A stretch of DNA of 64,000 bases, from contig CBDFLE010000006.1 in NCBI GenBank assembly GCA_965248925.1, positions 480,001 to 544,000 of the forward strand, written 5' to 3'. The notes under the pieces are model-generated. The model did no database searches, was not told the origin of the DNA, and saw only the letters and a list, made by a program, of their open reading frames with translations. Positions 2,761-57,187 of this stretch are shown piece by piece; position 1 is the first letter of the stretch; each line of letters starts with the position of its first letter. Source of the DNA: Candidatus Multivoradales bacterium (GTDB lineage: Bacteria > Acidobacteriota > Thermoanaerobaculia > Multivoradales > J023). Position numbers and translations under genes: made by a program.

Positions 2761-2846
2761 CGCGGTGTCCTCACAAGTGGGTTGATATCTCAGATAGATG
2801 CTACCGTAGCATTTACAGCCCCCTTTGAGAACCCCGCCTCCTCAGC

Positions 2847-3283: not shown

Positions 3284-3432
3284 CAAGAAAGCTCGGTGAG
3301 GGAAACGCGGAGGACCGGCCTCGCCGGGCAACATGATATTCAACGACCCTAAAATCGTAAACCCCGGCCAAGCTGATCCGCCCGCCCCGGATCTTCGTCC
3401 CCGCCGCTAGCGGCGAGATAGAGTGCCGGGCC

Positions 3433-7340: not shown

Positions 7341-7388
7341 TGGAGCCGATGAGCGGATTTGAACCGCTGACCTGCTGATTACGAATCA
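7341..7388 (-). repeat. att site: duplicated 3' 48 bp of tRNA-Thr(CGT)
   Basis: TGGAGCCGATGAGCGGATTTGAACCGCTGACCTGCTGATTACGAATCA is identical to 53696-53743. Confidence 0.97.
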
Positions 7389-7495
7389 CAGATTCGATGT
7401 TTCGTCACAGCACTACATGTCGCCTTAAGTGTTGCGATTCAAACAGTTAACTGGCATACTTCGTCTCATGGATTGCGACCAAATACCCCTGAGTT

Positions 7496-7525
7496 TGGTT
7501 ACTTCTGGTTACTCAGTGGTTACTT
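7496..7525 (+). promoter_or_regulatory. Putative integrase arm-type sites (3x TGGTTACT)
   Basis: TGGTTACT at 7496, 7506, 7517; the 20-mer TGGTTACTCAGTGGTTACTT recurs at 53628-53647. Confidence 0.75.
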
Positions 7526-7541
7526 GACGGAGAGGTCTGGC

Positions 7542-8705
7542 ATGAGGCTCACCAAGCGCGGGATCGACGCTGCTGACTACGAGGGCGGGACCGACTACCG
7601 CTGGGATGATGTTGTCTCTGGATTCGGGATGCGGCTCTACCCGAGTGGCAAGAAGGCTTTCGTGGTGGCCTATCGGGTGCTCGGTCGCAAGCGGATCATG
7701 GTGCTTGGTCGCTATGGAGTGCTGACGCTCGATCAGGCGAGAACGCGGGCGCGCAAGGTGCTGGCGCAAGCTTCCGAGGGTCTGGACCCGAGCAGAGACC
7801 GCCAGGCTCTCCTCAAGGCGCCAACGGTGGTCGATCTCGCCACCCGCTTCCTGGCCGATCATGGCCCGAAGAAGAAGGCGAGCAGCATCAGGAATGATCA
7901 GCGGATGTGGAAGCAGAACATTCTTCCCCGCCTTGGTCAGCGGAAGGTCGTCGATGTCACGCGGTCGGATATCGACCGTCTGCACTCTCAGATGCGGAAG
8001 ACCCCTTACGCCGCCAACCGGGTCCTCGCGCTCCTCTCCAAGGCTTTCAATCTCGCCGAGGTCTGGGGCTGGCGGCCAGCTCCCTCGAACCCCTGTCGTC
8101 ACGTCAAGCCGTACAAAGAAGAGAAGCGGGAGCGGTACCTCAGCCCGGCCGAGATCTCCCGGCTCGGTGTCGTTCTCGAAGAAGTCGAGCACGAGCGGGT
8201 CGAACTCCCCGGCGTGGCCACCGCCATCCGTCTCCTCCTCCTCACCGGCTGTCGTCTGAACGAGATCCTCTCGCTTCGGTGGCAGGATGTGGACTTCGAG
8301 AGTGGCTGCCTTCGTCTCGCCGACAGCAAGACCGGGAAGCGCCTGGTGCTTCTCAGTGGCGGAGCCCTGGAGCTGCTCGCGGCCACAGAGCGAGTCGAAG
8401 GGAACCCCTACGTCGTTCCGGGGAAACGAGAGGGCCAGCACCTGGTCAATCTCTCCAAGCCCTGGCGGCGTATCCGCGAGCGGGCTGGCTTCGACGATGT
8501 GAGGCTCCATGATCTGCGGCACACCTTCGGGAGCTTCGGCGCCGGCGCCGGCCTCTCTCTGCCGCTCATCGGCAAGATGCTCGGGCACAGCCAGCCGGCG
8601 ACCACGGCTCGATACGCTCACCTGGCGAACGATCCTCTTCGCCGGGCGGTGGAACTCGTTGGTTCTGAGATCTCCACGGCACTGACCGGCGACTTGCCGG
8701 AATAG
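7542..8705 (+). CDS. Tyrosine integrase (P4-like, N-terminal arm-binding domain)
   Basis: WDDVVSGFGMR arm-binding domain; TGCR, HDLRH, LGHS, TARY catalytic residues; next to att. Confidence 0.95.
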   Translation: MRLTKRGIDAADYEGGTDYRWDDVVSGFGMRLYPSGKKAFVVAYRVLGRKRIMVLGRYGVLTLDQARTRARKVLAQASEGLDPSRDRQALLKAPTVVDLATRFLADHGPKKKASSIRNDQRMWKQNILPRLGQRKVVDVTRSDIDRLHSQMRKTPYAANRVLALLSKAFNLAEVWGWRPAPSNPCRHVKPYKEEKRERYLSPAEISRLGVVLEEVEHERVELPGVATAIRLLLLTGCRLNEILSLRWQDVDFESGCLRLADSKTGKRLVLLSGGALELLAATERVEGNPYVVPGKREGQHLVNLSKPWRRIRERAGFDDVRLHDLRHTFGSFGAGAGLSLPLIGKMLGHSQPATTARYAHLANDPLRRAVELVGSEISTALTGDLPE

Positions 8706-37284: not shown

Positions 37285-37361
37285 ATTGCTCGATGTCCAT
37301 TCGTTGGCAGGACGATTTGGCCTTCTCGATCTACGAAGGCGAGGTTTGGGGAAGAACTGGC

Positions 37362-40588: not shown

Positions 40589-41139
40589 GGGGATCTGTTG
40601 AAGAGGAGGAGGAAGACGGGAGAGATTCAAGAACGACGCGGAGCATGGTCACCTGACGCTCCAGCATCACAACCAGTTGGGCACCTTTGCGGAGGTCATC
40701 GTGGGTGAGCCGTTGGTAGGTGCTGGCGCGATCGGCGATCTGGTGGAAGCTGGTACCGACCCGGCGAATCTCCTGGACCATGCCTTGTAGGCGAGATTCC
40801 AGGGATGCTGGTAGGAGCGATTTTCGATCGAGGTACGCCAGCCCTACGTCGCGCAGGAAGGGTGCGACACGGCTATGAAATTGGTTAGCAGCATGCGAGA
40901 TCTTGAAGTACTGATCCGGGTAGAGTGCCTGCACCGACGGAAACCGACCACCGATTCCGATTGAAAGTGACCAGTGATTCCAACGGAATCTGACCATCGA
41001 TTCCGATCGAAAGTGACCACTTTTCCGGGTCGATCGGAATGGGTGGTCAGATTGGATCGGAATCCTGGCCACGGCGGAGTTCGACGGTAGCGCGCTCCTC
41101 ACAATTGGGGTATTCCAGCCTCCTTGAAAGGAGAATTGG

Positions 41140-42714
41140 ATGCCGAGAGTGAGGACATCGATGCGCAAGATACGCGAGGTACTGAGACTGAAATGGCAGC
41201 ATGGCCTGTCGCACCGCCAGATCGGACGGTCGGTTCGGCTGGGCCACGGGACGGTGTGCAACTACCTGCTGCGAGCCAAGGTTGAAGGCCTGAGCTGGGA
41301 GCAAGTAGCAGCTTTGAGCGACGCTGAGCTGGAGCAACGCCTGTACCCTCGGCCGCAGCCGCTTCGGAGGGGTGGTCAGCGAGCCTTGCCCGACTGGACC
41401 AAGGTGCATGGCGAGCTGAAGAAGAAGGGCGTAACCCTGTCGCTGCTGTGGCAAGAGTACCGGGAGGACCATCCTGACGGCTACGGTTTCAGCCGCTTCT
41501 GTCAGCTGTACCGGATCTGGGAAGGGCGCCTGGATGTGTGCCTGCGCCAAGCCTACCGGGCGGGCGAGAAGCTGTTCGTCGACTATGCCGGACAGACCGT
41601 GAGGGTGATCGACCCGGCGACTGGCAAAGCGCGCGAAGCGCAGATCTTCGTGGCGGTGCTGGGGGCGAGCAACTACACCTATGCCGAATCAACGTGGAGC
41701 CAGGGCCTGGAGGACTGGATCGGCTCTCATGTGCGGACCTTCGCGGCTCTGGGCGGGGTGAGCGAGCTGGTGGTGCCGGACAATCTGAAGAGCGGCGTGA
41801 CCAGCCCGTGCCGCTACGAGCCGGAGATCAATCGCACCTACGCGGAGTTGGCCGAGCACTACGGCGTGGCGGTGGTGCCGGCGCGGGTGAGGAAGCCCCA
41901 AGACAAGGCGAAGGTCGAAAACGGTGTATTGCAAGTGGAGCGCTGGATTCTGGCCCGGCTGCGTAACCAGCAGTTCTTCAGCCTGCGAGAGCTCAACGAG
42001 AGCATCGCGAAGCTTCTGGTCGAGCTTAACGACCGTCCGCTGAAGGTGTTGGGCGTCTCGCGCCGAGCGCTGTTCGAGCAGGTCGATCGTCCTGCTCTGG
42101 GTGCTTTGCCGCTCCAGCCCTACGAGCTTGCCGAATGGAAGAAGGTACGCGTTGCCCCGGACTACCACGTCGAGTTCGAGGGCCACTATTACAGTGTGCC
42201 GTACCAGCTGATCAAGAAGCAGCTCGATCTGCGGGCGACGGCGCAACTGGTGGAGGTGCTCGATCGCGGCAAGCGTGTGGCTGCTCATCGTCGCAATCGG
42301 TGTCGGGGTCGGCACACGACCCAGAGCGAGCACATGCCCAAAGCGCACCAGGCGTACCTGGAGTGGACACCGACACGGCTGATCAGCTGGGCGGCGAAAA
42401 CAGGCCAGGCGACGGCCGAACTGGTGGAGACCATCATGCTTAACCGCTCCCATCCTCAGCACGGCTTTCGCTCGTGTCTGGGGCTGATGCGCCTGGGCAA
42501 GACCTATGGTGCCAATCGTTTGGAGGCTGCGTGCCGCCGCGCGCTCGCCATTCACGGCCTGTCCTACAAGAGCGTGAAGTCGATCCTGAAGAGCGGCCTG
42601 GACCAGCAAGCAGCGCCCGAGCCCACCGAAGTGACGGCGCCGATCGAGCACCACAACGTCCGCGGCGCCAGCTACTACAGTGCCGCGCGCCGCGAGGAGA
42701 CGCCGCCATGCTGA
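41140..42714 (+). CDS. istA: IS21 transposase
   Basis: GEKLFVDYAG, VPDNLKSGV, KAKVE. Confidence 0.95.
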   Translation: MPRVRTSMRKIREVLRLKWQHGLSHRQIGRSVRLGHGTVCNYLLRAKVEGLSWEQVAALSDAELEQRLYPRPQPLRRGGQRALPDWTKVHGELKKKGVTLSLLWQEYREDHPDGYGFSRFCQLYRIWEGRLDVCLRQAYRAGEKLFVDYAGQTVRVIDPATGKAREAQIFVAVLGASNYTYAESTWSQGLEDWIGSHVRTFAALGGVSELVVPDNLKSGVTSPCRYEPEINRTYAELAEHYGVAVVPARVRKPQDKAKVENGVLQVERWILARLRNQQFFSLRELNESIAKLLVELNDRPLKVLGVSRRALFEQVDRPALGALPLQPYELAEWKKVRVAPDYHVEFEGHYYSVPYQLIKKQLDLRATAQLVEVLDRGKRVAAHRRNRCRGRHTTQSEHMPKAHQAYLEWTPTRLISWAAKTGQATAELVETIMLNRSHPQHGFRSCLGLMRLGKTYGANRLEAACRRALAIHGLSYKSVKSILKSGLDQQAAPEPTEVTAPIEHHNVRGASYYSAARREETPPC

Positions 42715-43472
42715 GGCACGCGACGCTCGATCAACTCGCCGCGCTCAAGCTCCACGGTATGGCCAAAGCCTTTGAGGAGCAGCTGTCGATGGTCGATGTC
42801 TCAGAGCTCTCCTTCGAAGAGCGCCTCGGGCTGCTGGTCGAGCGCGAAGCGACCGAGCGATCCAGCCGCCGCTTGATAGCGCGGTTGCGAAAAGCCAAGC
42901 TGCGCGAGCAGGCGGCCATCGAAGACATCGACTGGCGAGCCAAGAGGGGCCTGGACAAAGGCCAGATCCTGCGCCTGGCCTCGTGCCAGTGGATCGCCGA
43001 GCATCTCAACGTGCTGATCACCGGCAAGGCCGGGGTGGGCAAGACCTTTCTCGCCTGCGCCTTCGCGCACAAGGCATGTCGGGAGGGTTACACCGCTTTG
43101 TACCTGCGGGTGCCGAGGCTGTTTCGCCAGCTCGCCATCGCGCGGGGTGATGGTAGCTACGAGAAGCTGCTCAAGAGCTATGCTCGCACAGACCTGCTCA
43201 TCCTCGACGACTGGGGGCTGGCGCCGATCGGGGCCAGCGAGCGGCGCGACCTGCTCGAGATTCTTGAGGACCGCTACGGCAACCGCTCCACGCTGGTGAC
43301 CTCCCAGCTACCGGTTGAGAGCTGGTACGAGGTCATCGGCGATCCGACCTTGGCCGACGCCATCCTCGATCGCATTGTCCACGGCGCCTACAAGCTCGCG
43401 GTGGACGGTGACTCCATGCGGGCGAAGAGAGCCGGCGGTATTCGCAAGGCCGCCCAGCGAGAGGCAAGGTGA
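42708..43472 (+). CDS. istB: IS21 helper ATPase
   Basis: GKAGVGKT, LILDDWG, DAILDR, GDSMR. Confidence 0.95.
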   Translation: MLRHATLDQLAALKLHGMAKAFEEQLSMVDVSELSFEERLGLLVEREATERSSRRLIARLRKAKLREQAAIEDIDWRAKRGLDKGQILRLASCQWIAEHLNVLITGKAGVGKTFLACAFAHKACREGYTALYLRVPRLFRQLAIARGDGSYEKLLKSYARTDLLILDDWGLAPIGASERRDLLEILEDRYGNRSTLVTSQLPVESWYEVIGDPTLADAILDRIVHGAYKLAVDGDSMRAKRAGGIRKAAQREAR

Positions 43473-44388: not shown

Positions 44389-47300
44389 ATGACACCGGAT
44401 TTCACCTACGACGTTTTCTTGAGTCACAGCTCTCAGGACAAGCTCGCCGTGCGCGCTCTGGCAGAGCGATTGCGAGAGGACAGAATAAGAGTCTGGTTCG
44501 ATGAGTGGAAGATTGGCCCCGGCGACAGTATTCCAGCGAAGATCGAAGCAGGACTGGAGCAGTCGCGTGTGCTCGTGCTTTGCATGTCGGACAGTGCGTT
44601 CGGCTCTGACTGGGCGCAGCTAGAGGCCGGCACGTTCCGCTTTCGCGATCCACTGAACAGCGATCGCCGCTTCATCCCGTTGCGGCTCGACGATGCTCCC
44701 ATCAGAGGCTCCCTCGCTCAATTTCTCTACATCGACTGGCGGATTGAGGATCATGAGCAAGCCTACCTCGGATTGCTCAAGGCCTGTCGGGAGACCGAGC
44801 CAGGAAGTGCAACCGACATGCAGGATGAGAAATGGTGGTCGCGCGCGAAGCCACAGGATGTCGCCGCTCATGGGCCATCGAGGGATGACTTCCCTAAGAA
44901 GACCAAAGACACCCTTTCCCGAAGAGTAGGAATGAGGTGCTCCAATCCAGACTGCCGACAAACGACAAGCGGCCCACAATCCGATCCCGACAAAGCCATC
45001 AATATAGGTGTTGCCGCCCACATCACCGCTGCTTCGTCAGGCGGGCCGCGATATGACGGATCGCTTTCAAAGGTAGAGCGTTCTTCGATCCAGAATGGCC
45101 TCTGGCTCTGCCAGAACTGCGCGAAATTGGTGGATAGCGACGTAGGACGATTCACCGTCGAGTTGCTCCAAGAATGGAAGAAGAATGGGGAGAGGTCGGC
45201 TCAACGAGCGTTGGAGACCAGTGCGAGCATTGCTAGCGATATTGGCGATGCCGCCACCGACCGAAAGACGAGTGCTGCGAAAAGGAAGATCGACAAGGCG
45301 CAGGAGCTAGCTCGTTCAGGAAAACTCAGCGAAGCAATAGCGGAGGCTCTTGAGTCCCTCGAGATTGCGCGGAACGAGAACGACGAAGAGCAAGAGGTGG
45401 AAACCTTGCTCGCCTTAGCGCTGCTCTCGTCGGATCGACAAGGGATCGGAGACAGACTTCACTATTTTCAAGAAGCTGAGAAGAAAGTCGACAAGATCAA
45501 GGCACCTGCGGCTAAGGCTATCTACTTGCGCGCGAAGGCAGCAGTTCTGGGTGAGCAAGGCGACACCTCAGGAGCCGAGGCGCTCTACAAAGAGGCGCTC
45601 GACATCTGTTCGAGGGAGGAGGACGACGAGAAAAGAAATCTTGCGACTCAAGCGTGCATCTTGCGGTCAGACTATGTCCATCTCCTTTGCGGTGAGAAGA
45701 GATATGAGGAGGCGGAAGCAGTTCTAAGGGCGTGTGAAGATTATGCGCGCGACAACCGCGATGCTAGGAACACAGAACTCCTTGGGGCGGCGCTGGAGGC
45801 CGGGATACATCTGTACCTCGATACTAAGGACAAGGAAGGAGCCGTGGCCCGAATCGAAGAACTTGAAGCTGCGGCCACCACGATAAGGCTAGCGGATCGT
45901 ATCGGCGGCGAGCTCCTCAATATCGCGAATCACGCGGCCCACAGAAAGATGTATGGCGCTGCCCTTCGCGCGGCAGAAGCGAGCATACGGTTGGGTCACC
46001 GCTGTGATGATGGCAAGTCGCCGGGCTTCCTGATCGGAGCGTTGTATACCGAGGCAATGATCTTGGCGAAATCTGGTGATGAGATGGCGCTAACCAAGGC
46101 CCAAGCAGTACTGAGCGCCTGTTGTAGGCCAGAGGATCAGGCCGTCAGACAAGCGGCCAGCCAGCTGATCGCGGAGATACGACGGACAGCTGGCGATTCA
46201 GAGTCGGCAGTTGATCTCGCGCGCGGGGCCTTAGCGTTGGCCACAGGAGGGCCAGAGAACATCGCTTTCTCGAAGTCTGCGCTGGCCCGAGCGCTGAATG
46301 ACAACGGCCAAACTGAGGAGGCGTTCAATGAGGCGAGCGAGGCGTGGGCGCTACTTGAGCAAGCTAGTATTCCGCCTAAAACGGCACTGGATGTTCTGGC
46401 TCAGGTAACCAACTATGGATCGCAGATCGGCAACGACGCTGGTGTTCGGAGCGCACTCGACACGATCGCTGTGTTACCAGACGAGGAGGGGGAACTCGAG
46501 GAGGAGAAGACCCGTGTCGTCGCGCGGGCGGATGCTAACCGTCAGATTAGAGAGAGGATTCTGGAGATATCAACGCCGTCGAGTTCAGAAGATGGCCCGA
46601 ATATCGAGGCAGGTGTAGCCACTCTCCAGGACGCGAACGCGAGAGTTGTCGAGCAGTTAATCGGCCTTTGGGATGAAGTACCGGAAGCCGCCGGAGGAAT
46701 CTATGACTTCTGGGGTCGGGGCAATTTTGTGCGCCTGCTCGAGAATGCTCGGCGTTACCCAACTAGTTTTAATGTAACAGTCGAGGTGCGCAGTTTAGAG
46801 GACGTGAAACGAGCGATTCGCCTGTGGGGCCTCTACGCTGATTTTCTTCTGCTTCTCTGGAAGGGCGAGTCTCAGAGTGGGCTGGCCATCGTGCCCTTTC
46901 CGCGAGATTTCAAGGGGCCCGGAGGCTGGGGCTACATTGTGGCTATGGGCGACGAAATGAAGGTCGAAGGCTCATCGAAAATATGGCATGGCGCGTTGGC
47001 GCAGATTTCAAGTATCCCGGACGATGTAGCTGCATTTCTTGCAACTGAAGCCCGGCGGTTTGTGGAGACGGGTCGCCTGATTGTCGTGTCGGCTCCAGCT
47101 GTAGGTTGCACCAACCCAGGTCACGGACCGTTTGAGCAGCTGCTCGCTGAGAGTGCAAACGCGATCCCAAGCGTACGCTGGAAGGGCTTTGAAGGTGAGC
47201 CGATTGGTCTTGTGCCGTACTCCCCGAACGCACCGTTGGAACTGCTAGCTGAGCTGACAGAGATCGAGGATGACCGGCTAAGGAAGCTGAGACTTCTTCT

Positions 47301-47709
47301 CGTTGAGCGGAGCAGACAGCTAGTGCCTGGCAATGAAGTGAAGGCCGGTGCAAGAATATTAGCTCTGGAGATTGACGACGCATTGCGTGACCTGACTGAT
47401 AGGACGGATGCCTTCTCTCGTAGGAAGGGACTGGAAAGAGCAGCCGAGCCACTGTGCGCTGGAATCGCCCGCTTTAGACGTGAGGGACTGGCACTGTCTG
47501 ACGAGGCTTCTCACTCCCCATTTGCACCGCTGTTCGTACTCCAGAGCTTAGGATACGGGTGGCGAGTTGACAGCGGGGCGATACCGAAGCCCCCAGGGCG
47601 TTTCCAGCCAGAGTCCGGTGACATCGTTGGGACATGGTTGGCTCCACCAACAGCGGGCTGGACGGTACCTATCATGCGCGCTGTCGATGCCGATGATAGG
47701 GAGACTTGA
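44389..47709 (+). CDS. TIR + HNH-like + TPR + unknown C-terminal domain protein (candidate defence)
   Basis: YDVFLSHS..WFDEW..SDWAQLE (TIR with catalytic Glu); CSNPDC..AAHITAAS.GGPRY..NGLWLCQNCAKLVD; helical repeats. Confidence 0.88.
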   Translation: MTPDFTYDVFLSHSSQDKLAVRALAERLREDRIRVWFDEWKIGPGDSIPAKIEAGLEQSRVLVLCMSDSAFGSDWAQLEAGTFRFRDPLNSDRRFIPLRLDDAPIRGSLAQFLYIDWRIEDHEQAYLGLLKACRETEPGSATDMQDEKWWSRAKPQDVAAHGPSRDDFPKKTKDTLSRRVGMRCSNPDCRQTTSGPQSDPDKAINIGVAAHITAASSGGPRYDGSLSKVERSSIQNGLWLCQNCAKLVDSDVGRFTVELLQEWKKNGERSAQRALETSASIASDIGDAATDRKTSAAKRKIDKAQELARSGKLSEAIAEALESLEIARNENDEEQEVETLLALALLSSDRQGIGDRLHYFQEAEKKVDKIKAPAAKAIYLRAKAAVLGEQGDTSGAEALYKEALDICSREEDDEKRNLATQACILRSDYVHLLCGEKRYEEAEAVLRACEDYARDNRDARNTELLGAALEAGIHLYLDTKDKEGAVARIEELEAAATTIRLADRIGGELLNIANHAAHRKMYGAALRAAEASIRLGHRCDDGKSPGFLIGALYTEAMILAKSGDEMALTKAQAVLSACCRPEDQAVRQAASQLIAEIRRTAGDSESAVDLARGALALATGGPENIAFSKSALARALNDNGQTEEAFNEASEAWALLEQASIPPKTALDVLAQVTNYGSQIGNDAGVRSALDTIAVLPDEEGELEEEKTRVVARADANRQIRERILEISTPSSSEDGPNIEAGVATLQDANARVVEQLIGLWDEVPEAAGGIYDFWGRGNFVRLLENARRYPTSFNVTVEVRSLEDVKRAIRLWGLYADFLLLLWKGESQSGLAIVPFPRDFKGPGGWGYIVAMGDEMKVEGSSKIWHGALAQISSIPDDVAAFLATEARRFVETGRLIVVSAPAVGCTNPGHGPFEQLLAESANAIPSVRWKGFEGEPIGLVPYSPNAPLELLAELTEIEDDRLRKLRLLLVERSRQLVPGNEVKAGARILALEIDDALRDLTDRTDAFSRRKGLERAAEPLCAGIARFRREGLALSDEASHSPFAPLFVLQSLGYGWRVDSGAIPKPPGRFQPESGDIVGTWLAPPTAGWTVPIMRAVDADDRET

Positions 47710-47887
47710 GGGGCGGACAGCGAGTCCTTCTGGAGCGTGTCGAGCCTGGACTCTTCTCTAGCTGGGCGGCGGACGAAGGCTCGATAGTTCAATCTCTGGC
47801 TTCAGGGCTGCCCCTTTTCATGGCGGGTCATTCGACCGGCCGCCGCAGGAGCCCAAAATAGGGAGGTGACTTTCATCCCTACTATCC

Positions 47888-49018
47888 ATGACCTCCGCAT
47901 CACGCCCACGTCTCATCGCCGAGAACCTCACCCAGATCCGCCAAAACACCAACTGGCGCCAGTTCTTCGAAGCCCTGAAGCTCCCCAGAGACCCCAAGAA
48001 ATCCAAAGACCACGACTGGTGGGCCAAGAGCCCCTTTCGACCTGACGAGCGTACTGCCTCGTTCCATATGAACGCTCGCGGCTGGTATTGCCACGCTACA
48101 AGCCAGGGCGGCGGCCCCATCGAATTGGTGCAGCGTCTCCATCCGGGAATGCACTGTTTCGATGCTGGCCGATGGCTTCTGGAGCATGGCGTCAGCCGCG
48201 TTGTATCGGATGTTCGGGAAGATCTTCATCTTCTCGAAGGCGCAGATACCGTTCAGTCCGAGAAGGAGCCCTCGAACGAGCCAGTCCGGCAGGATCTCCG
48301 GAGCCAGCTCTCCGCGAACCACCGGCTCTGCGCCGCTCGGGGCGTCCCTTCCGAGATCTACCGAGAATTGGGTGCTGGCTTCCTGGATCGGCCAATTCGG
48401 AAGAATGGGAGACCCGATCCACTGAACCACCGAATCGTGTTCCAGATCCGGGGACTCAAGGAGAACGAGACCGGAGAGCTTCATGCCGTTGTCCTCGGTC
48501 ATATGGGCCGAGCGACAACAGAAGACCAGGCCGACCGGGATGGCAAATGGTGGACGTATGCAGGATTCAAGAAAAGTCTGGAGCTGTACAACCTCGACCA
48601 CGCGATCCTTGACGATGAGGCCGTTGACCAAGCCAAGGGTACCGAGCATCTTCTCGTCGTGGAGGGACTGTTCGATGTCGCCAGGCTCTACGCCGCCGGC
48701 ATTCGCAACGTGGTCGCTACTTTCGGCGCCAGCCTCAGCACAGCTCAGCTCAGGCGACTCGATCTCATCAGCGAGATGGTCGGTGTCAACCGGTTCATCA
48801 TCTTCTACGATCGAGACCGGGCTGGACACAAGGGTGCCAAGAAGGCTCTTGAGGCGATTACGGCTTCGGGGCTCGGCATTCAGGCTGAAGTCTTCGATTG
48901 GAACCGCGTCTGGGAATCGACCGTCCGAGGTGATGTCGGCATTCCCGCATCGATCACCGATCCCGCCGAGTTCTCCCTCGGGCAGCTTCAATGGCTCCGT
49001 CATGAGGGGATCCTGTAA
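47888..49018 (+). CDS. DnaG-like TOPRIM primase with degenerate Zn-binding domain
   Basis: SPFRPDERTASF..WYCHA; VVEGLFD, YDRDRAG. Confidence 0.85.
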   Translation: MTSASRPRLIAENLTQIRQNTNWRQFFEALKLPRDPKKSKDHDWWAKSPFRPDERTASFHMNARGWYCHATSQGGGPIELVQRLHPGMHCFDAGRWLLEHGVSRVVSDVREDLHLLEGADTVQSEKEPSNEPVRQDLRSQLSANHRLCAARGVPSEIYRELGAGFLDRPIRKNGRPDPLNHRIVFQIRGLKENETGELHAVVLGHMGRATTEDQADRDGKWWTYAGFKKSLELYNLDHAILDDEAVDQAKGTEHLLVVEGLFDVARLYAAGIRNVVATFGASLSTAQLRRLDLISEMVGVNRFIIFYDRDRAGHKGAKKALEAITASGLGIQAEVFDWNRVWESTVRGDVGIPASITDPAEFSLGQLQWLRHEGIL

Positions 49019-49030
49019 CCGTCCTCGCCC

Positions 49031-49918
49031 ATGAAGATCTCCAGCTTCCACCGGGAGTTCAAGCATTACGCGCTTCTAGGGAAAGGCATGACCAACGGCG
49101 TCTACCGCTCAATCGGCTACACCCTTCGGATGCTGTGTCGATATGCGGCGACTGAAGAAATCGGCTCGTTGACGCCGGACATGATTCGCGCTTTTCTCTA
49201 CTACGGACGAAGCGAGCGCGGCTGGGCGGCAAAGACCTACCGAAATCACTGGCAGTACCTCAAGATCTTCTTCGACTTCTGTCAGCGGCAAGGCTACGTC
49301 CGCTCCAATCCCGTCGAAGGAATCGAGAAGCCGAAGCTCCCGGAGCGACTCCCACGTTGCCTTTCTCACGAAGACTCCTTGAAAGTCCTGGCATACTCGT
49401 ACGGCTACGATTGGCGGTACCACCTTGAAGCTGCACGGAATCACGCGATCATCGCGACTCTGATGATGACCGGCCTCCGGCTGCAAGAGCTTCTGAATCT
49501 CGAAGTCCACGATCTCGACCTGTCGGGGTGCGGGATTCTCGTGAGGCGAGGGAAGGGCCGCAAGGATCGGCTCGTTCCTGTTTACCACAAACTTCTGCCC
49601 ATCCTTCGTAACTTCCTGGAAGCGAAGCGCCAGTCTGGGAAAATCTCTCGCTGGCTGTTCACGGGCGTCAAGTCTGACAAGCAGCTCGCGCAAAAGGACG
49701 TTCGTCGGATCTGCCAAAGAATCTCCGTCGCCTGCGGTGTCAAGTTCACTCCTCATGTTCTCCGGCACACCCTCGGCCGCGAGCTGGTAGACAACGGCGT
49801 CGATATCAAGACGGTGCAGCGAATCTTTGGTCACGCTCAGGTGACCACCACCGAGATCTACACTCATCTTTCTACGCGAGCGTTCAATGGGAATTTTCAA
49901 AGGGCGAGAATCTTTTGA
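49031..49918 (+). CDS. XerC/D-like tyrosine recombinase 1
   Basis: TGLR, GKGRKDR, HVLRH, FGHA, TEIY. Confidence 0.93.
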   Translation: MKISSFHREFKHYALLGKGMTNGVYRSIGYTLRMLCRYAATEEIGSLTPDMIRAFLYYGRSERGWAAKTYRNHWQYLKIFFDFCQRQGYVRSNPVEGIEKPKLPERLPRCLSHEDSLKVLAYSYGYDWRYHLEAARNHAIIATLMMTGLRLQELLNLEVHDLDLSGCGILVRRGKGRKDRLVPVYHKLLPILRNFLEAKRQSGKISRWLFTGVKSDKQLAQKDVRRICQRISVACGVKFTPHVLRHTLGRELVDNGVDIKTVQRIFGHAQVTTTEIYTHLSTRAFNGNFQRARIF

Positions 49919-50049
49919 CAGATCGCGAGGAAATCTCTACGGTGTGGATACCTGCCTTCAGGTCGCTGAACATCGGAAGCCCATCTTTGGGTCACCCATC
50001 GGAATGCCGCATAGGAACTTGCATTACGGGACTTGAAAGCCACTGAGCT

Positions 50050-50096
50050 GGCTCATAACCCGAAGGTCGCAGGTTCGAGTCCTGCCCCCGCAACCA
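50050..50096 (+). other. Orphan 3' half of initiator tRNA-Met(CAT), attP-like
   Basis: GGCTCATAACCCGAAGGTCGCAGGTTCGAGTCCTGCCCCCGCAACCA; no D-arm or 5' acceptor strand upstream. Confidence 0.85.
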
Positions 50097-50185
50097 ATAT
50101 CCGCTACAGGAGCGGACTCCGAAGAATCGACAGTCCGACAAAGAAGGTTCAGCGACCACAGGGCAGAGCCCTATGGTCACTGGCT

Positions 50186-51112
50186 ATGTCTGAAATTGAA
50201 CAACTCCATCGGCAATTCTGCGAGTTCTCGCTGACCTTCAAAGCGAATACTCCACGGACGATCAAGTGGCTCCGCGCCACGTTCGCCGATTTTCTGCGCG
50301 GGACTGAGTTGACCAGCGCGACGCAGCTCGACCGAAGAACAATCGAGAACTGGATCGTCCGCAAGAAGCTGGAGAACAGCTGGTCCGCGAAATCGGTGCG
50401 GAACAATCTCCAAGCCTTGAGCCTCTTCTGCGACTGGCTGGTTCGGGAGGAGTATCTGGTCGAGAATCCGACATCCCAAATCCCGAAACCCAAGCTGCCA
50501 CATACAATCCGTCCGCATCTGACGGTAGAGACAGCCCAGGATCTTCTCGACTGGACGCGGAACTTCCCGTTTGGGTATGCCTTCGAGCGAGCGCGAGCCA
50601 CGGCCATTCTCTCCACCTTCCTCCACACCGGCATTCGCCTGGAAGAGCTGAGAAACCTCCACTGCGTCCATGTCGACCTCGAAAACCGCTCCCTATTCGT
50701 GGAGAAGGGAAAATGCCAGAAGGATCGAATCGTTCCGTTCGGCCTACCGCTAGTGGAGGCGCTTCAGGAGTACTTGCGCCATAGAACCAGATTGAAGAAG
50801 AGCTGCCCCTATTTCTTTGCGGCGATGCGGCAAGACAGCCAGATGGGAGACTCGGTGATCAAGCGGCTCGTTTCCAGGCTGCGCGACAAGAGCGGGATCT
50901 ACTTCTATCCACACATGCTGAGGCACACCTACGCCACATTGATGTTGCAGGGCGGGGCCGACATCAGGGCGGTGCAAGAACTGTTGGGCCACGCCTCGAT
51001 CCTTTCGACACTGCCGTACCTGCATACGACGACGGCGCATCTCCAGGCGCAGATCCAAAAGTATCCGCTCAATGTAGATTGGCAGGGGCCTCACGGCATC
51101 AAGGGCCTCTGA
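50186..51112 (+). CDS. XerC/D-like tyrosine recombinase 2
   Basis: TGIR, GKCQKDR, HMLRH, LGHA, TLPY. Confidence 0.93.
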   Translation: MSEIEQLHRQFCEFSLTFKANTPRTIKWLRATFADFLRGTELTSATQLDRRTIENWIVRKKLENSWSAKSVRNNLQALSLFCDWLVREEYLVENPTSQIPKPKLPHTIRPHLTVETAQDLLDWTRNFPFGYAFERARATAILSTFLHTGIRLEELRNLHCVHVDLENRSLFVEKGKCQKDRIVPFGLPLVEALQEYLRHRTRLKKSCPYFFAAMRQDSQMGDSVIKRLVSRLRDKSGIYFYPHMLRHTYATLMLQGGADIRAVQELLGHASILSTLPYLHTTTAHLQAQIQKYPLNVDWQGPHGIKGL

Positions 51113-51161
51113 ATGAATGAAATCTCAGACTTCGCCGGTTCGCCTCTGGCCAGACAGCCAG

Positions 51162-51992
51162 CTAGCGGTCGACTTTCAAACGAGCGCGGAGTTCGGCGAG
51201 GTTCTCCTCGATGTGGCTCGGGATAGGCACTTGCCGGTTAAGGGTTTCACGAAGAACCTGATACTTCTCATGCCATTGCCGGAAGTCCCGAAGTTCTTCT
51301 TTAAGCGAAAAGGCAAGAGCCTCGACGCAGGTGACGGCAACCATGGTGTACAAGTTGCAGAGGTTTCGAAGCACCTCTTCGTCGAGAGGACCACCGAATC
51401 TTCCCGCGAAGGCAAGCCCTCTGCCTATCTGCCCGCCATCCTGAAAGCTAGTGAACGCTGACGTCACCGGGAGGACGCTAGCATGCCCAAGAGGAGCCGT
51501 AATCAACCATGCCGTCCTGAGTCTTTGGAAAAGTTCACTCGGTATTGAGTCGAGTCTCCGTAGAACCGAACCCCCGGTGCCCTGTCGTGAATTCCAGACC
51601 TTCTGAAAGTCTGCCGGTGAGTGGACGCTGAAAACTTGGAAGATCGAGGCTTCTGCGGCCCCTCGCGAAAGCGTTAGGCTCACACGCGGATGAGCAATAA
51701 CGCTGCTGAACCAGCCCCATAAGAGATGATCGGCGGCGAAGCAGGCGAGGGCGACAGAGAGTCTGGGTGTCTCCGAAAAGTCCTGGCCGGAGAGAACATT
51801 GAGCCCACCAAGGTGAAGCTCGAACGCGGGTTTCAGTACAACGGCTTCAAGCTCGCGTACGATCTCTTTCGATTCAGGATGGGCATTGGCCGTGATCCAT
51901 TGATTGTAGGTCTTCTCGGCACTCTCAAATGCCTCAGCCTCCGTGAGCGTGGGGGCAACCTCCTCGCGAGAGGGCAGTTTCTGATGAGTCAT
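51162..51992 (-). CDS. Hypothetical helical protein, possibly HEPN/DUF5677-like
   Basis: LSRGAAE and AWLITAPLGH resemble the RxxxE ... Yxx(L)SxxxH pattern (tentative). Confidence 0.65.
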   Translation of the reverse strand: MTHQKLPSREEVAPTLTEAEAFESAEKTYNQWITANAHPESKEIVRELEAVVLKPAFELHLGGLNVLSGQDFSETPRLSVALACFAADHLLWGWFSSVIAHPRVSLTLSRGAAEASIFQVFSVHSPADFQKVWNSRQGTGGSVLRRLDSIPSELFQRLRTAWLITAPLGHASVLPVTSAFTSFQDGGQIGRGLAFAGRFGGPLDEEVLRNLCNLYTMVAVTCVEALAFSLKEELRDFRQWHEKYQVLRETLNRQVPIPSHIEENLAELRARLKVDR

Positions 51993-52051
51993 TGTCTTGC
52001 CTCAGAATTCGCGTAAGCGCCTTTGTAGTATGTTTGTTGTCGCGGCGTATT

Positions 52052-53377
52052 CTACTGGGCCGAGGACTTGACGAACAGGAAGCCGACTCCACAAGAGGGT
52101 GGGGACAACCAGTGGAAATGACCATCCTCCAGTGAATCCGGAGCAGTCTTCCTTCGTTGGAGTTTGTGTCGACGAAGAGGCATTCGACGACGCCGAAACG
52201 GCTTTCTCCGCCCCAAATCCCAAAGCAAGTACAAGGGATTCCGGCGAAGCTCCAGGCCGCTGTCAGAGGCCTGTCGAAGACACTCGCAAAGTCCTGCCGC
52301 GGCAACTCCTCCGGCAGCCGCCACGAGAGCTGTCCCAACTGCTCCAGTTGCTCCAGCCGCACTTCCTAGCGCGGCTGCGGTGGTGCCAACAATGCCTCCC
52401 AGCCCCGTTACTGTTGCTCTGAACCGACGAGCCCGATCTGAAAGAGCCAGCTCCGAGACCTCGTAGTTGAGTTCCGAAACAAATTCCTCTAAGCGGTCAT
52501 GAGGAGAGGCCTCAGCAAGTCGGCGAAACGCGACTCGTAGGCGTTCAAGTTCAACAGGGGAATCCGCCATCATGCTGTCGAACTCTGCGGGTGCCATCCC
52601 GTCCAACACCGGAAGATCAAGTGATAGCAGCTTTTCCTCGGTTTGACTCAGCATCGCGCTATCCCGGAGAGGGAGCGCTCCCACAAGATTCTCGAAGCCA
52701 GTGCGAACATCGTCGGCGGCGGACGACAGTCCAATCAGCTCTTCCGGCGCAACAAAGACATCACCGCGTGAGAACGCGAGTGGTCCTTCTTCGACGATCC
52801 AATCCCCGACGACTTCTGGTAGCAAGCGAGCGTAGCCAAAGATCTCAGACCAGAGTCGACCGCGCATCTTTATCTCGTTGGTGATCGCTAAGTATCCCCA
52901 CCCAGCATCCCAGAGGCTGTCGGGTTCGCCCGGATGGAGATGCGACACTCGCACTGGTCTACTGAGTGCTCCTCGCCATAGGAATTCAATTGGAACCCCA
53001 AGCAACGCTAGTCGGCGATATGTCCAACGCATCTCGTCGACGAATTGAACTGAGACTTGGAGTGGACGGACTGCGTTTAGGTTGTTGTGGATCAGCCGCC
53101 GCGCATAGTTTCCGCGAGCCCAGAAGTCCAAAGACGCCGAGCGGCCCCTAGCTGACTTCATCCAATCCAGCAGCAGATCGTATTTCGGCGCTGGTGGTTT
53201 ACCAGAGGGGTAAGACGAGAGATCGAATGGCGTCGCTGGGTACGCATATAGCTCCGCCGAGCGGGGGTCTTTACCATCGATCGTGATCCTAGCTTTCGGT
53301 TCCAATTTGGCAGGATCCCTTTCCTGATGTCGTGGTCTCTGACCTTGGTTGCGTCGACTTTGGCAATCAGATTGCAC
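52052..53377 (-). CDS. Hypothetical protein homologous to the C-terminal domain of the TIR protein
   Basis: Colinear DFWxRGN, LWxG, GWGY, PLxxLxxLG, WLxPP motifs; start uncertain. Confidence 0.75.
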   Translation of the reverse strand: MQSDCQSRRNQGQRPRHQERDPAKLEPKARITIDGKDPRSAELYAYPATPFDLSSYPSGKPPAPKYDLLLDWMKSARGRSASLDFWARGNYARRLIHNNLNAVRPLQVSVQFVDEMRWTYRRLALLGVPIEFLWRGALSRPVRVSHLHPGEPDSLWDAGWGYLAITNEIKMRGRLWSEIFGYARLLPEVVGDWIVEEGPLAFSRGDVFVAPEELIGLSSAADDVRTGFENLVGALPLRDSAMLSQTEEKLLSLDLPVLDGMAPAEFDSMMADSPVELERLRVAFRRLAEASPHDRLEEFVSELNYEVSELALSDRARRFRATVTGLGGIVGTTAAALGSAAGATGAVGTALVAAAGGVAAAGLCECLRQASDSGLELRRNPLYLLWDLGRRKPFRRRRMPLRRHKLQRRKTAPDSLEDGHFHWLSPPSCGVGFLFVKSSAQ

Positions 53378-53695: not shown

Positions 53696-53770
53696 TGGAG
53701 CCGATGAGCGGATTTGAACCGCTGACCTGCTGATTACGAATCAGCTGCTCTACCCCTGAGCTACATCGGC
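53696..53770 (-). tRNA. tRNA-Thr(CGT)
   Basis: GCCGATGTAGCTCAGGGGTAGAGCAGCTGATTCGTAATCAGCAGGTCAGCGGTTCAAATCCGCTCATCGGCTCCA; cloverleaf, encoded CCA. Confidence 0.97.
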
Positions 53771-53888: not shown

Positions 53889-55730
53889 TTAGGGGTCGGA
53901 GGCCGCGTGCTCGATTACTAGCCAATGGCGATCTAGGGCTCGTATCCAGCGCAGCCGCACTGGGCCGAGAAGCTCGCGATCTAGCTCTTCTGCAAGAGCC
54001 ATTTGCTGGCGGATCTGTGGCTCTGCCCGCGGCAGCGGCACAATGGGCTCTCTGGCTGAGAGGAGAAAGGGCAACCAACGGCGCCAGGGAGCGGCGATGG
54101 GACCTAGTATCACCGGCGTGGCGGAAGCCGCCCGGCGCGCTAAGCGGCGAGCTCGGGCGAGATCGCTGGGCTTGGGCTGCCGACCACCGGCGGGCCAAGC
54201 TTCTAGCTGACGGCGGCCGGCGCCGGCTCGGTCGACGGCAATTAGCCAGCTGCCACCAAGCCCCGGAGGACGGGTGCGGAAAAGCTGCCAACGATCTATA
54301 ACTCCGGCGGGCTCGAGAGCCAGGTCGTAGCCCGCCAGGGAGGTCAGAAGAGCCTCGGTGGGCAAGCTGGAGACCCGCCGCTGGAGGTGGGTCGCCAGCC
54401 GGCCCGCTTCACGGTAGGCCCTGGATTGCGCGGCTGGGTGGTCGAGCAGGAGCAGGAGGTCACCCCTACCCACACTCGCCGAAGTCAGGTGCCGGGCAGC
54501 CAATGGCCGCAGCCGGGCTCGCAGCACGCGATTCTCGAAGCTGGTCCGCCACAGGTCTCGTAGGGGACGGATCTGCCAGCGGCTTGGCTCGCTGGGCTGC
54601 GCGGATAGATCGAGGTAAATCGGCGGTAGGGGCCATAGTGCGACCTGCCGACCACCGGCGACCGTGTCGCCAGGCTGAGGCAGGCAGAGACCGACCAGGA
54701 GAAACAGAGCGGCAAGCCGTCGGAGCAGCGGTGGGCGCAGATGGCTCAGGCCGGCAGCCACCAGGAAGGCGGTGGGCAGGTAGGCATAGGTCATGAACCG
54801 CTGGCTGCTGTAGCCGTAAAACAGGACGAAGAACAACAGTTGAGCAACCAACAACAGCAGCAGGGTGCCTTCCCAGGACCGCGTCCGCGCTCGACGAAGC
54901 ATGACCGGCAGACCAAGAACAGCGAGTATCAGAGCCGGCAAACCGAGCAAGCGCAAGCCGGCAATCAGGTAGAAACCCACCGCATCGCCGCTCACCCTCA
55001 ATAGGCCCCAATGCCGCACCTCGACATCGATCAGCTCAACTAGCAGCCCCTGGCGAATCAACCACCAGATCGCCGTCGGTCCGAGAAACGCCACCATGGC
55101 CAAGTAGTGCCGCCGACTCGGCCGACGCCGCTGTAGCACCCCGATCGCAGCTGCTGACAAGGGCAGCAACCAAGCCAACGGCTGGGTGATGGTGCTGAGC
55201 CCGCCGCAGAAGCCTGCCACTAGCAGCAACTTGGGGCGGCATTCTGCCCAGCGAGCAAAGAATAGAGCCCAGGCCAACAAGCAGGCGGCCAACATGTCGG
55301 CCATCAACTCTAGCGAGCGACAACGCCAGACAAAACCCATTAGCCAAGCCAACGAAACTAGCAACGACAACTGCCAGGGATGCTGCCGCCGCAAGACTGC
55401 GTACAACGCTAGAATGGTGCCCTGCGCTACCAGCTGCAAGGCGAGCGGCAGCCAAGGCAGCAGATTTGCCCTCTCGGCTAAAGCAACTAACAAGGGCAAC
55501 AATGGCAATCGCGCTGAATAGCGCACTTCCGCTCCGACCCAACGCAGGCCGTTGGCCAACCAATCGTAAGTGTCACCGCCGACGAAGGGGTAGTCTAGCG
55601 CTAGGCTCGGATAGAGCAACTTCGGCAGCAACCAGACGAGCTGACAAAGCACCACCAGCAAGAGACAGCGGAATCCAAGGTCGTGGGCGAGGCTCCGCGG
55701 TAAGCGGTGGGTTGCAACGAATCTAGACAC
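53889..55730 (-). CDS. Polytopic membrane protein, GT-C (ArnT/PMT-like) glycosyltransferase
   Basis: Many TM segments, acidic first loop GGDTYDW, RLPLLP, SQRF motif. Confidence 0.65.
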   Translation of the reverse strand: MSRFVATHRLPRSLAHDLGFRCLLLVVLCQLVWLLPKLLYPSLALDYPFVGGDTYDWLANGLRWVGAEVRYSARLPLLPLLVALAERANLLPWLPLALQLVAQGTILALYAVLRRQHPWQLSLLVSLAWLMGFVWRCRSLELMADMLAACLLAWALFFARWAECRPKLLLVAGFCGGLSTITQPLAWLLPLSAAAIGVLQRRRPSRRHYLAMVAFLGPTAIWWLIRQGLLVELIDVEVRHWGLLRVSGDAVGFYLIAGLRLLGLPALILAVLGLPVMLRRARTRSWEGTLLLLLVAQLLFFVLFYGYSSQRFMTYAYLPTAFLVAAGLSHLRPPLLRRLAALFLLVGLCLPQPGDTVAGGRQVALWPLPPIYLDLSAQPSEPSRWQIRPLRDLWRTSFENRVLRARLRPLAARHLTSASVGRGDLLLLLDHPAAQSRAYREAGRLATHLQRRVSSLPTEALLTSLAGYDLALEPAGVIDRWQLFRTRPPGLGGSWLIAVDRAGAGRRQLEAWPAGGRQPKPSDLARARRLARRAASATPVILGPIAAPWRRWLPFLLSAREPIVPLPRAEPQIRQQMALAEELDRELLGPVRLRWIRALDRHWLVIEHAASDP

Positions 55731-55987: not shown

Positions 55988-57187
55988 TCAAGAAACCAGC
56001 TGTCCAAGACCCGGCAGGTCTAGCTGGAAATGCTCCGGTGCTGTGTTCTCTGGTGGTGTCCCGAACGGTTCATCGAGCCAATCGCGCAAGTCCCGATAAG
56101 TGAAGAGGTTCAGTCGTAGCATCGATGCAAGATTCGAGAATGACCACCCCGCCTTGGAGAGGAAGTGAAGCCAGCGGAGCAGCAGCAGCGCGATCAAGGC
56201 TGTCCAGATCTGGATCCGCAGGGCATTCTCACTGGTCCCGACGAAGGTCTTGACCTTCAGGTTCTGCTTCAGCGTCTTGAAGAAAAGTTCGATCTGCCAG
56301 CGGTCTCGATAGATCGCGGAGATCGTCGTGGCTCCGAACGTCAGATGATTGGTCAGCAAAACGATCTCTCGCTTCTTCTCAGCATCCCAGACTACGACAC
56401 GGCGCAGCAGATAAGGACAGGCCTTGCGCGCCTTCGGCGTCTCGAACTCGATGATTTGGTCGGAAAGGATCGAGCGATTCTGCGGCACCTCCCGGATCTC
56501 GACGATAGAGTAGGCGGTAGCCTCCTTCATGCGGGTAACGAAGAAGACCCCCTGCTCGGTCCAATCGGCAAAGAGCCGAAAGTCGTTGTAGGCAGGGTCC
56601 ATTGCAACGATGGAGCCCGGGTTGAGCTGCAGCCCTCGGGCGCTGCGCACGTCGGCCTGCCTGGCGTCGGTCAGTAGCGCGTAGGAAGGCATGTAGTCGC
56701 CGTGGTCGAGCAGCACATGGAGCTTGACGCCGCCTTTGGAGCGGCGGAAATCGGCCCAAGGAAACAGTGCGAGGCACAGCGAGATGGTCGTGGAGTCGAG
56801 TGAGAGAAGCTTGTTCTTGAACCGGAACTTCTGCTGGCCGAGCGTGCCCAGGGAGCCCTGCCCACGGAAACGCTGGAGGGCGGACCAGAAGAGACTCTCG
56901 AAAAGAGCAGCGGGTCGATGCTGGTTGGCGTAGGAGAGGGTGGATTTATTGGGAGCCTTGTCGATGCCAAGGTGGGCAAGCTTGCCCACGCAGCAGGCAA
57001 GGCCGTTGCAGATCTCGCGCAGAGAGTCGGCGCGAGCGGTCTGGCAGAAAAGCATGGCGACGAACTGAGACCAACAGGTGAAGCCCTTGGCGGAGCGCTC
57101 AGCCTGATGATCACGGACCAAGGCGGCGAACTCGAGGCGTGGGAAGTGTTGAAGCAGTTGACTGAAGAGGCTGGCGCTGCGTACCAT
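55988..57187 (-). CDS. IS4-family DDE transposase
   Basis: DSTTISL, KLHVLLD, MDPAY, YRDRWQIELFFKTLKQ. Confidence 0.95.
   Translation of the reverse strand: MVRSASLFSQLLQHFPRLEFAALVRDHQAERSAKGFTCWSQFVAMLFCQTARADSLREICNGLACCVGKLAHLGIDKAPNKSTLSYANQHRPAALFESLFWSALQRFRGQGSLGTLGQQKFRFKNKLLSLDSTTISLCLALFPWADFRRSKGGVKLHVLLDHGDYMPSYALLTDARQADVRSARGLQLNPGSIVAMDPAYNDFRLFADWTEQGVFFVTRMKEATAYSIVEIREVPQNRSILSDQIIEFETPKARKACPYLLRRVVVWDAEKKREIVLLTNHLTFGATTISAIYRDRWQIELFFKTLKQNLKVKTFVGTSENALRIQIWTALIALLLLRWLHFLSKAGWSFSNLASMLRLNLFTYRDLRDWLDEPFGTPPENTAPEHFQLDLPGLGQLVS

Follow-up and report, generated by a model that had tools for sequence, protein, structure and literature searches.

The window analysed here, a stretch of 64,000 nucleotides from Candidatus Multivoradales bacterium (Acidobacteriota; assembly GCA_965248925.1, contig CBDFLE010000006.1, positions 480,001 to 544,000 of the forward strand), encodes two copies of a protein domain that is real, of ancient origin and as yet without a name. 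We denote it X; its hallmark motifs are D-F/Y-W-x-R-G-N, GWGY and W-L-x-P-P. One copy forms the C-terminus of a large protein that also contains TIR, HNH and TPR regions, and the other accounts for most of a shorter, stand-alone protein with a hydrophobic insert. With moderate confidence, and judging from architectures and gene neighbourhoods, we favour the interpretation that the X family consists of single-gene conflict proteins, most likely anti-phage proteins acting by abortive infection, with X serving as their regulatory or assembly module. The family is sporadically distributed and moves horizontally. The two genes and their parts are the following.

44389..47709, plus strand: TIR-HNH-TPR-X protein, 1106 amino acids (aa) counted from the ATG at 44389 (open reading frame (ORF) and translation)
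44413..44763, plus strand: TIR domain, residues 9-125 (Pfam TIR_2, E = 3e-26)
44881..45243, plus strand: HNH (His-Me finger) nuclease domain, residues 165-285, with CSNPDC, AHI and CQNC motifs
45316..46677, plus strand: array of TPR or helical repeats (Pfam TPR_12, NCBIfam NsdA-like TPR, consensus of alignment A3)
46678..47706, plus strand: domain X, fused copy, the C-terminal ~345 aa (BLASTP, hidden Markov model (HMM), alignment and AlphaFold2 model)
52052..53377, minus strand: stand-alone domain X protein, 441 aa from the GTG at 53377
52289..52405, minus strand: Gly/Ala-rich, uncharged hydrophobic insert of the stand-alone protein, residues ~325-363, predicted to form a helical hairpin

The portion of the fused protein that precedes X consists of recognisable parts. 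TIR chains in the PDB match its TIR domain at about E = 1e-11 in a sequence search, and the SDWAQLE motif of this domain holds a glutamate at the position that we take to be catalytic. The HNH domain is matched by the PADLOC model PDC-M68A (E = 1.6e-25) and by CBASS endonuclease effector models and, among the PDB sequences, by HNH chains and Cap5-like SAVED-HNH chains. The TPR array is retained along the whole fused family in the consensus of alignment A3. The Walker A (P-loop) motif GxxxxGK[ST] is absent from the 1106-aa protein, no NTPase family of Pfam or NCBIfam matches it, and a GxxxxGK[ST] string occurs in just 4 of the 87 fused relatives. The stand-alone ORF, for which an alternative TTG start at 53305 would yield a protein of 417 aa, matches no family in Pfam (E <= 0.01), NCBIfam, PADLOC or PHROGs.

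The homology of the two copies of X, which had been proposed from shared motifs in the sequence-only reading, is apparent from direct comparison. In a BLASTP search, the C-terminal 369 aa of the fused protein match the stand-alone ORF with E = 1e-7 and 24% identity over 154 aa, and the terminal WLxPP motif is matched in addition. An HMM built from 17 stand-alone relatives only, with the TIR protein of the window left out, matches 86 of the 87 fused-family proteins, many of them across the whole domain; the match to the window TIR protein has E = 2.8e-11 (Z = 1e6), and in other fused members the matches cover model positions ~38-402. The invariant columns of the MAFFT alignment A1 (18 rows) include D-W-RGN-R, GWGY, E197, LG and WLxPPxxG. 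Eight of the nine colinear motif pairs that had been picked out by inspection fall in the same columns of A1; the remaining pair, NAIP/GALP, does not.

A search of 5.8 billion clusters retrieved 18 other relative clusters of ~400 aa for the stand-alone protein, and 86 other clusters, nearly all ~900-1100 aa long, were found for the fused C-terminal domain. A mixed profile of 448 positions, compared with 1.84 billion representatives, matched 482 proteins at E <= 1e-3, of which 174 reach E <= 1e-30; the matched proteins are ~400, 500-700 or ~1000-1300 aa long. Two members, P0042 and P0112, end in a SEC-C zinc-binding motif located directly after X.

The two copies of X in the window share ~20% identity. 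In a FastTree phylogeny of 140 of the 246 domain rows, from which rows with less than 85% of the columns filled had been dropped and the hairpin columns removed, these copies fall on opposite sides of the deepest well-supported split, and the 27 hairpin-bearing short forms all lie on one side of a single branch with a Shimodaira-Hasegawa-like support of 100. The low identity and the placement in the tree imply that the window copies are old paralogues, not products of a recent duplication, as the sequence-only reading had surmised. Its further claim that the family was not a recognised one also held: neither Pfam nor NCBIfam, PADLOC or PHROGs contains a model that matches X; when PDB sequences were searched with profiles and with single sequences, all matches lay in the TIR, HNH or DUF4062 regions of the family proteins and none within X; and a search of the ESM Atlas gave no usable match for X. 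No description of the domain or of its architecture was found in the full texts searched, supplementary tables of the Thoeris and DUF4062 preprints aside, which may list such proteins as untested candidates.

The AlphaFold2 model of the fused X, obtained with 103 aligned sequences, has a predicted local distance difference test score (pLDDT) of 90 and a predicted template modelling score (pTM) of 0.89. It consists of a long helix bearing DFWGRGN, a mixed alpha/beta core with some eight strands, a helical hairpin at domain residues ~213-276, a short strand followed by a disordered loop at 281-305, and a well-packed extended tail with WLAPP. A structural search with this model shows a weak resemblance of the core to nucleotide-binding, Rossmann-like folds, with no convincing neighbour. 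Given that the PDB sequence searches match only the parts of family members outside X, we consider X to be an alpha/beta domain of unassigned fold. No SLOG, SAVED, Macro or STING structure is found among the best 50 structural matches of X, a result that is compatible with a distant relation to SAVED. The predicted complex of two X copies scored 0.00, which speaks neither for nor against self-association.

The part of the fused proteins that varies is the N-terminus. The N-termini of 79 fused proteins (78 relatives and the window protein) form 18 BLAST clusters, 7 further fused relatives being too short for classing. Comparison with Pfam and PADLOC identifies at least seven N-terminal types.

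TIR+HNH: the window protein and P0082
HNH alone: similar to CBASS endonucleases
Protein kinase (Pkinase): similar to PD-T4-6/mad6
PNP_UDP_1 nucleosidase: similar to the CBASS PN-effector
Mrr_cat nuclease
DUF4062: P0089 and P0095, which carry DUF4062 + TPR + X
DUF676 esterase: similar to the retron type VIII effector

Two 2026 preprints, in their accessible parts, describe DUF4062 as a TIR-like NADase. The exchange of N-termini is illustrated by P0024, in which X is 78-81% identical to that of the window protein and the N-terminus is unrelated, and by P0082, in which the TIR-HNH part is 64% identical to that of the window protein and X only 48%. None of the PADLOC matches on the fused proteins reaches into X and the TPR region is kept across the fused family, so that TPR+X is to be regarded as the chassis on which the N-terminal domains are exchanged.

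In the stand-alone proteins, an N-terminal effector is missing and the hydrophobic insert is present instead. The Gly/Ala-rich stretch of the window protein is, in the alignment, an insert relative to the fused form, in keeping with the initial description of it as an extra hairpin; it contains a 44-residue uncharged run with a maximum 19-residue Kyte-Doolittle mean of 1.83. The equivalent segment in the AlphaFold2 model of the fused form is the short strand with the disordered loop. Family proteins were aligned to the profile with hmmalign, and the segment equivalent to the insert was scored for hydropathy in the 246 that carry X. A 19-residue hydropathy of at least 1.6 at this site was found in 33 of the 74 stand-alone-like proteins (median 1.57) and in none of the 146 fused or mid-length proteins (median 0.005), in which the segment is a short charged loop. 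Inspection by eye shows two ~18-residue stretches rich in Gly, Ala, Thr and Val that flank a short polar turn in ~60 of the 74 stand-alone-like proteins. By the hydropathy test, the hairpin never occurs together with an N-terminal effector, which fits alternative effectors placed on a common regulator; together with the range of N-terminal types, this bears out the earlier suggestion that the shared domain is used with swapped effectors. No Pfam model of the SLATT or Gly-zipper kind matches the hairpin at E <= 0.01, and the likeness to such segments is one of composition alone.

The neighbourhoods of X genes were compared at 56 loci, 12 from GTDB genomes and 44 from metagenomes (33 stand-alone-type and 23 fused-type loci); each was gathered by one peptide pattern, a procedure that favours members with the canonical D[FY]W[AG]RGN motif. 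All-against-all clustering of the neighbours produced no cluster represented in more than 4 loci, and the cluster that attains this number comprises integrases. Defence, toxin-antitoxin or mobile genes are neighbours at ~17 of the 56 loci, which is suggestive. They include TIR, CHAT and SLATT genes, PDC-S54, Cas1, AbiEi/AbiEii, MazF and PIN, as well as Macro domain, AEP-TOTE, Peptidase_U49 and AAA_13 genes and restriction-modification genes of type I, type IIG and the Dcm/Vsr kind. Several members are split or frameshifted: at L020/L021 (positions 1582-4682), one ORF encodes the N-terminus with the TPR and another encodes X, and at L013, L054 and L055 two ORFs share what would be a single stand-alone gene. 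Such cases may be pseudogenes or errors of assembly.

An HMM scan of the locus ORFs found a fused and a stand-alone copy together at none of the 55 other loci, and a fused copy is present nowhere in the 10 other genomes that carry a stand-alone copy. Among the loci and genomes examined, the two forms coexist only in the window, which makes it unlikely that they are a conserved heteromeric pair. For an obligate pair of the two window proteins, joined through their X domains, one could point to the location of these homologues 4.3 kb apart on one island, in a phylum otherwise devoid of X (0 of 400 genomes), and to L053, where tandem stand-alone paralogues show that paralogue pairs can occur. We nevertheless find such a pair hardly credible in view of the lack of co-occurrence, and in the window itself the genes are on opposite strands with a primase-like gene and two recombinase genes between them. 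At L053 (positions 1706-4182), the only place besides the window where a paralogue pair was seen, the upstream one of the two tandem stand-alone X genes is very divergent (profile E = 2e-20, compared with 5e-98 for the other). The sequence-only reading had offered two possibilities, a sensor or oligomerisation module with swapped effectors, or a heteromeric pair; the swapping stands, and the conserved pair is unlikely.

Outside the window, X is rare and scattered. It was found in none of 400 other genomes of the same phylum and in none of 400 genomes from the phylum of a holder in the Gemmatimonadaceae; the genome that contains the window has just two copies. The named holders are metagenome-assembled genomes of Gemmatimonadota, Acidobacteriota (Thermoanaerobaculia), Planctomycetota, Bacteroidota and Nitrospirota and one of Sphingomonadaceae. 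Pattern searches of IMG/VR gave 0 confirmed matches, and tblastn found no X in 50,697 phage and 72,556 plasmid records.

A constant module combined with interchangeable enzymes or a hairpin, with no fixed partner, a patchy distribution and a location in variable regions, is what leads us to read X, with the TPR array, as a regulatory or assembly module. From the architectures and the neighbourhoods we infer a role in defence, along with regulation by X and an action of the hairpin on the membrane. Under this scheme, X, together with the TPR array where one is present, would keep the effector inactive until an infection trigger causes X to change state or to assemble. The fused protein, once switched on, would destroy NAD+ and DNA through its putative NADase-type TIR and HNH activities. 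In the stand-alone protein, the hairpin would sit in a surface loop of X and, after activation, would be driven into the membrane, as a membrane-acting alternative to the N-terminal enzyme. The two X genes of the window are, on this interpretation, independent cargo and not a conserved pair.

Several observations weigh against this scheme. The hairpin is Gly/Ala-rich and moderately hydrophobic, and its insertion in the membrane is predicted from composition alone. The tally of ~17 loci with defence-related or mobile neighbours comes without a background control or enrichment statistics, and many loci are shorter than 3 kb, so that it can be taken as suggestive only. Full independence of the two window genes does not readily account for their spacing of 4.3 kb, given how rare the family is. 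In the most populous N-terminal class (32 members, P0033 among them), no domain is recognisable, and an effector is assumed there. Finally, some forms of 500-700 aa seem to consist of TPR+X only, with no recognisable effector; either these are truncated gene calls or X can be active by itself.

The latter explanation can be extended to the entire family: toxicity or enzymatic activity would reside in X, with the hairpin and the N-terminal domains as accessories. X is indeed the sole part found in every member, including the 500-700-aa forms, and an active site could be built from its invariant residues (D, R, N, R and E). Yet, it has no invariant Cys or His and no Ser/Lys catalytic pattern, and no similarity to an enzyme family; the short forms may result from truncated gene calls, and the mutual exclusion of hairpin and N-terminal effector (hydropathy reached in 33 of 74 stand-alone-like and 0 of 146 fused or mid-length proteins) fits alternative effectors better. 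We judge an active X to be quite improbable.

A different role for X is brought up by the TIR genes. At L059 and L060, a TIR gene lies directly upstream of the stand-alone gene on the same strand, with gaps of 137 bp and 158 bp, respectively; the X proteins of these loci share 75% identity with one another and ~36% with that of the window, and their TIR partners are divergent. Further TIR genes are located near the X genes of L007 (loosely) and L022; with L037, where a weak TIR-like stretch lies ahead of the fused gene, the total comes to 5 of the 56 loci. The L059 TIR shows 34.5-37% identity to the fused TIRs (E from 9e-19 to 8e-23), and PADLOC PDC-S66 is the best match for the TIRs of the window, L059, L007 and L022; the TIR gene of L060 has no PADLOC match. 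The arrangement typical of Thoeris, with a separate ThsB-like TIR gene, is seen at L059 and L060 and, loosely, at L007; most loci are without it, and in the window the TIR domain belongs to the fused protein, encoded on the opposite strand. At L006 (positions 3858-4544), a Macro-domain gene with a weak DarG-like match is directly upstream of the stand-alone X gene on the same strand, and it may be relevant to an ADP-ribose-related signal.

From these neighbours, X can be envisaged as the receptor for an NAD+-derived nucleotide signal made by TIR, with a TIR gene and an X protein bearing two transmembrane segments forming a new, Thoeris-like two-gene system; on the island described here, the fused TIR would signal in cis, turning on the HNH nuclease, and in trans to the stand-alone membrane effector. 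The adjacency of divergent TIRs to closely related X proteins at L059 and L060, the kinship of the L059 TIR with the fused ones, the TIR or TIR-like stretches at the five loci and the Macro-domain gene at L006 are all consistent with such a receptor. So are the weak Rossmann-like resemblance of the X core, the predominance of Arg, Asp, Asn and Glu among the conserved polar residues, and the occurrence of two rare-family members, one of them with a TIR, within 4.3 kb, which would not be expected by chance. Published Thoeris effectors include transmembrane proteins and a TPR-containing effector, according to the accessible part of one report (bioRxiv 10.64898/2025.12.03.692087). Nevertheless, 28 of the 33 stand-alone-type loci have no TIR gene, most fused proteins carry non-TIR N-termini with no TIR neighbour, and the fused copy is missing from all 10 genomes with a stand-alone copy. 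In addition, TIR genes are common in defence islands anyway, and the window genes are on opposite strands with recombinase genes between them; the best 50 structural matches of X include no SLOG, SAVED, Macro or STING, a result that is no clear negative. Thus, we regard a nucleotide receptor as unlikely, albeit as an alternative to be taken seriously. If it were correct, the TIR-HNH-TPR-X protein would arm a second, membrane-acting X protein in trans, so that a conjugative-type element would link one signal to two mechanisms of killing. More broadly, TPR+X would represent an NTPase-free alternative to the NLR/STAND chassis of immune receptors. The adjacency of TIR genes in one subclade makes this ligand-receptor hypothesis directly testable.

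Both X genes belong to an integrative island, the main features of which are listed here.

53696..53770, minus strand: tRNA-Thr (CGT), the 3' 48 nt of which (53696-53743) are one copy of the direct repeat
7341..7388, minus strand: distal, exact 48-bp repeat of the 3' part of tRNA-Thr, at the other end of the ~46.4-kb element
7473..8705, plus strand: island integrase, a tyrosine recombinase with an Arm-DNA-binding domain, adjoining the distal repeat
14658-16586 and 28070-29464: coupling-protein-like genes, inside the island
22179-22931 and 39677-40630: relaxase-type genes, inside the island
23677-24351: N6/N4 DNA methylase gene, inside the island
47888..49018, plus strand: Toprim or DnaG-like, primase-related gene, between the X genes (Pfam, PADLOC, NCBIfam)
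49031-49918 and 50033-51112, plus strand: two tandem tyrosine recombinase genes, between the X genes (Pfam)

The two repeat matches were obtained in 0 of 100 shuffles. The 48-bp tRNA-Thr repeats and the Arm-type integrase substantiate the proposal of a tRNA-integrated island. Because both X genes lie within the repeat bounds, 7341-53743, they are cargo of this ~46.4-kb integrative element, which is probably mobilisable or conjugative. The primase-like gene and the tandem recombinases (47888-51112), far from the island integrase, might constitute a second integrative module, either nested or captured.

Other genes and repeats accompany them. The cargo includes a protein of 1400 aa with FG-GAP, DUF11 and esterase regions (30050-34252) and, at 34390-37970, a Ser/Thr kinase-TPR protein of 964 aa, devoid of X, that adjoins a gene for an extracytoplasmic function (ECF) sigma factor. 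Insertion sequences are found at 11520-12677, 19282-21853, 41140-43472, 55988-57187 and 57402-59795; the three copies inside the island are two IS21-type istA/istB pairs and an IS4-like copy (DUF4372-DDE), and a second IS4-like copy and a Transposase_29 gene are just outside. Also just outside the island, at 53889-55730, is a gene for a Leu-rich polytopic membrane protein of 613 aa without a family match, in a stretch of DNA where the AT skew is unusually high (0.28).

A further alternative is a function of X other than immunity, namely, signalling or regulation in complex soil bacteria, an addiction module that stabilises the element, or inter-bacterial conflict. Kinase-TPR proteins often act as regulators, as do ECF sigma factors, and the island carries a pair of this kind; X is found mostly in uncultured members of the Acidobacteriota, Gemmatimonadota, Planctomycetota and Bacteroidota whose genomes are large; the neighbours of X genes are ordinary metabolic genes at several loci; and an integrative element that carries X genes would gain from addiction. 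However, the N-terminal domains match effector models of defence systems, not housekeeping enzymes; the swapping of effectors on a fixed chassis and the extreme patchiness are typical of immune genes; and no conserved antitoxin-like neighbour exists at the 56 loci. Altogether, a non-immune function appears improbable, and we retain the single-gene, effector-swapping immune protein as the preferred interpretation.

One more gene next to the stand-alone copy requires comment.

51162..51992, minus strand: orphan gene of 276 aa, downstream of the stand-alone copy (P0003)

This gene had been described as possibly HEPN-like, and that description is not supported. The protein has no match in Pfam, PADLOC, NCBIfam or PHROGs, and no family model supports an assignment to HEPN, for which the Rx4-6H motif would be diagnostic: of the residues in the RDFRQWH string, W240 alone is shared by all 8 members of the family, so that the RxxxxxH pattern is not conserved. 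The family is very rare, with 7 other clusters (P0250-P0256), and its invariants are different ones, namely, DH88-89 (FAADHLLWG), R103, R110 and E114 (R-x6-R-x3-E), GTGG and GHAS. Its ESM Atlas look-alikes are clusters of hypothetical proteins, with DUF5677 on 25% of one cluster, a link that Pfam scans of all 8 members at E <= 10 left unconfirmed. The gene was also considered as a conserved partner of X and rejected, given that its family is absent from all 56 X loci by both tblastn and HMM. The 276-aa gene is not part of the X system.

Modular immune proteins with swappable effectors are known, and these are built on STAND NTPases or on SAVED, SLOG and Macro sensors. The resemblance of the fused X proteins to Avs and other STAND proteins is considerable: a single large protein with a swappable N-terminus (TIR, HNH or other nuclease, PNP, DUF4062, kinase, Mrr) and a TPR array, patchy in distribution and borne on islands. 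Unlike those proteins, the X proteins are without a P-loop NTPase, the order of their parts is effector-TPR-X with X last, and X matches no NACHT or NB-ARC. The defining NTPase being missing, the fused X protein is not an NLR/STAND protein.

The effectors of CBASS and Thoeris (the HNH-SAVED Cap5, TIR-SAVED, TM-SAVED, where TM stands for transmembrane, the Macro-TM protein ThsC and the SLATT protein ThsH) likewise combine a constant, non-catalytic module with an enzyme or with transmembrane helices; furthermore, the window HNH matches Cap5-type HNH models, and a TIR gene adjoins stand-alone X at L059 and L060. The differences are that X matches no SAVED, SLOG, Macro, STING or SLATT model in Pfam or PADLOC, that no cyclase or TIR partner is conserved across the 56 loci, and that a long TPR region separates the effector from X. 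The PADLOC models SAVED_HNH and SAVED_TIR match only the HNH and TIR parts of the window protein. As no sensor model matches, the X proteins are not recognised as CBASS or Thoeris effectors. The best PADLOC matches to the window domains, PDC-S66 (TIR) and PDC-M68A (HNH), cover only residues 6-80 and 167-279, and neither model reaches the TPR or X.

The closest proteins in the literature are effector-TPR proteins of TIR systems, ThsI of type VIII Thoeris and BcTpr, along with PNP effectors. In the accessible part of their descriptions, ThsI and BcTpr have a nucleosidase-like N-terminus and a TPR region that is proposed to perceive the TIR signal, and an N-terminal domain that degrades NAD or nucleotides, followed by TPR, is also the arrangement of P0089 and P0095. 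In contrast to these, ThsI and BcTpr are described there as ending in TPR, with no mention of a C-terminal domain like X, and the passages on PNP effectors mention none either.

The effector repertoire known from other modular immune proteins is seen here on a different constant module, one that was not recognised by the domain, defence and structure libraries used. Should X be the switch of a defence protein, a principle of sensing or assembly that is free of an NTPase would be added to bacterial immunity, and several hundred orphan proteins of soil and sediment bacteria would acquire a named domain. The enzymatic and membrane versions of one switch would then constitute a natural pair for studying how a single fold drives unrelated modes of killing.

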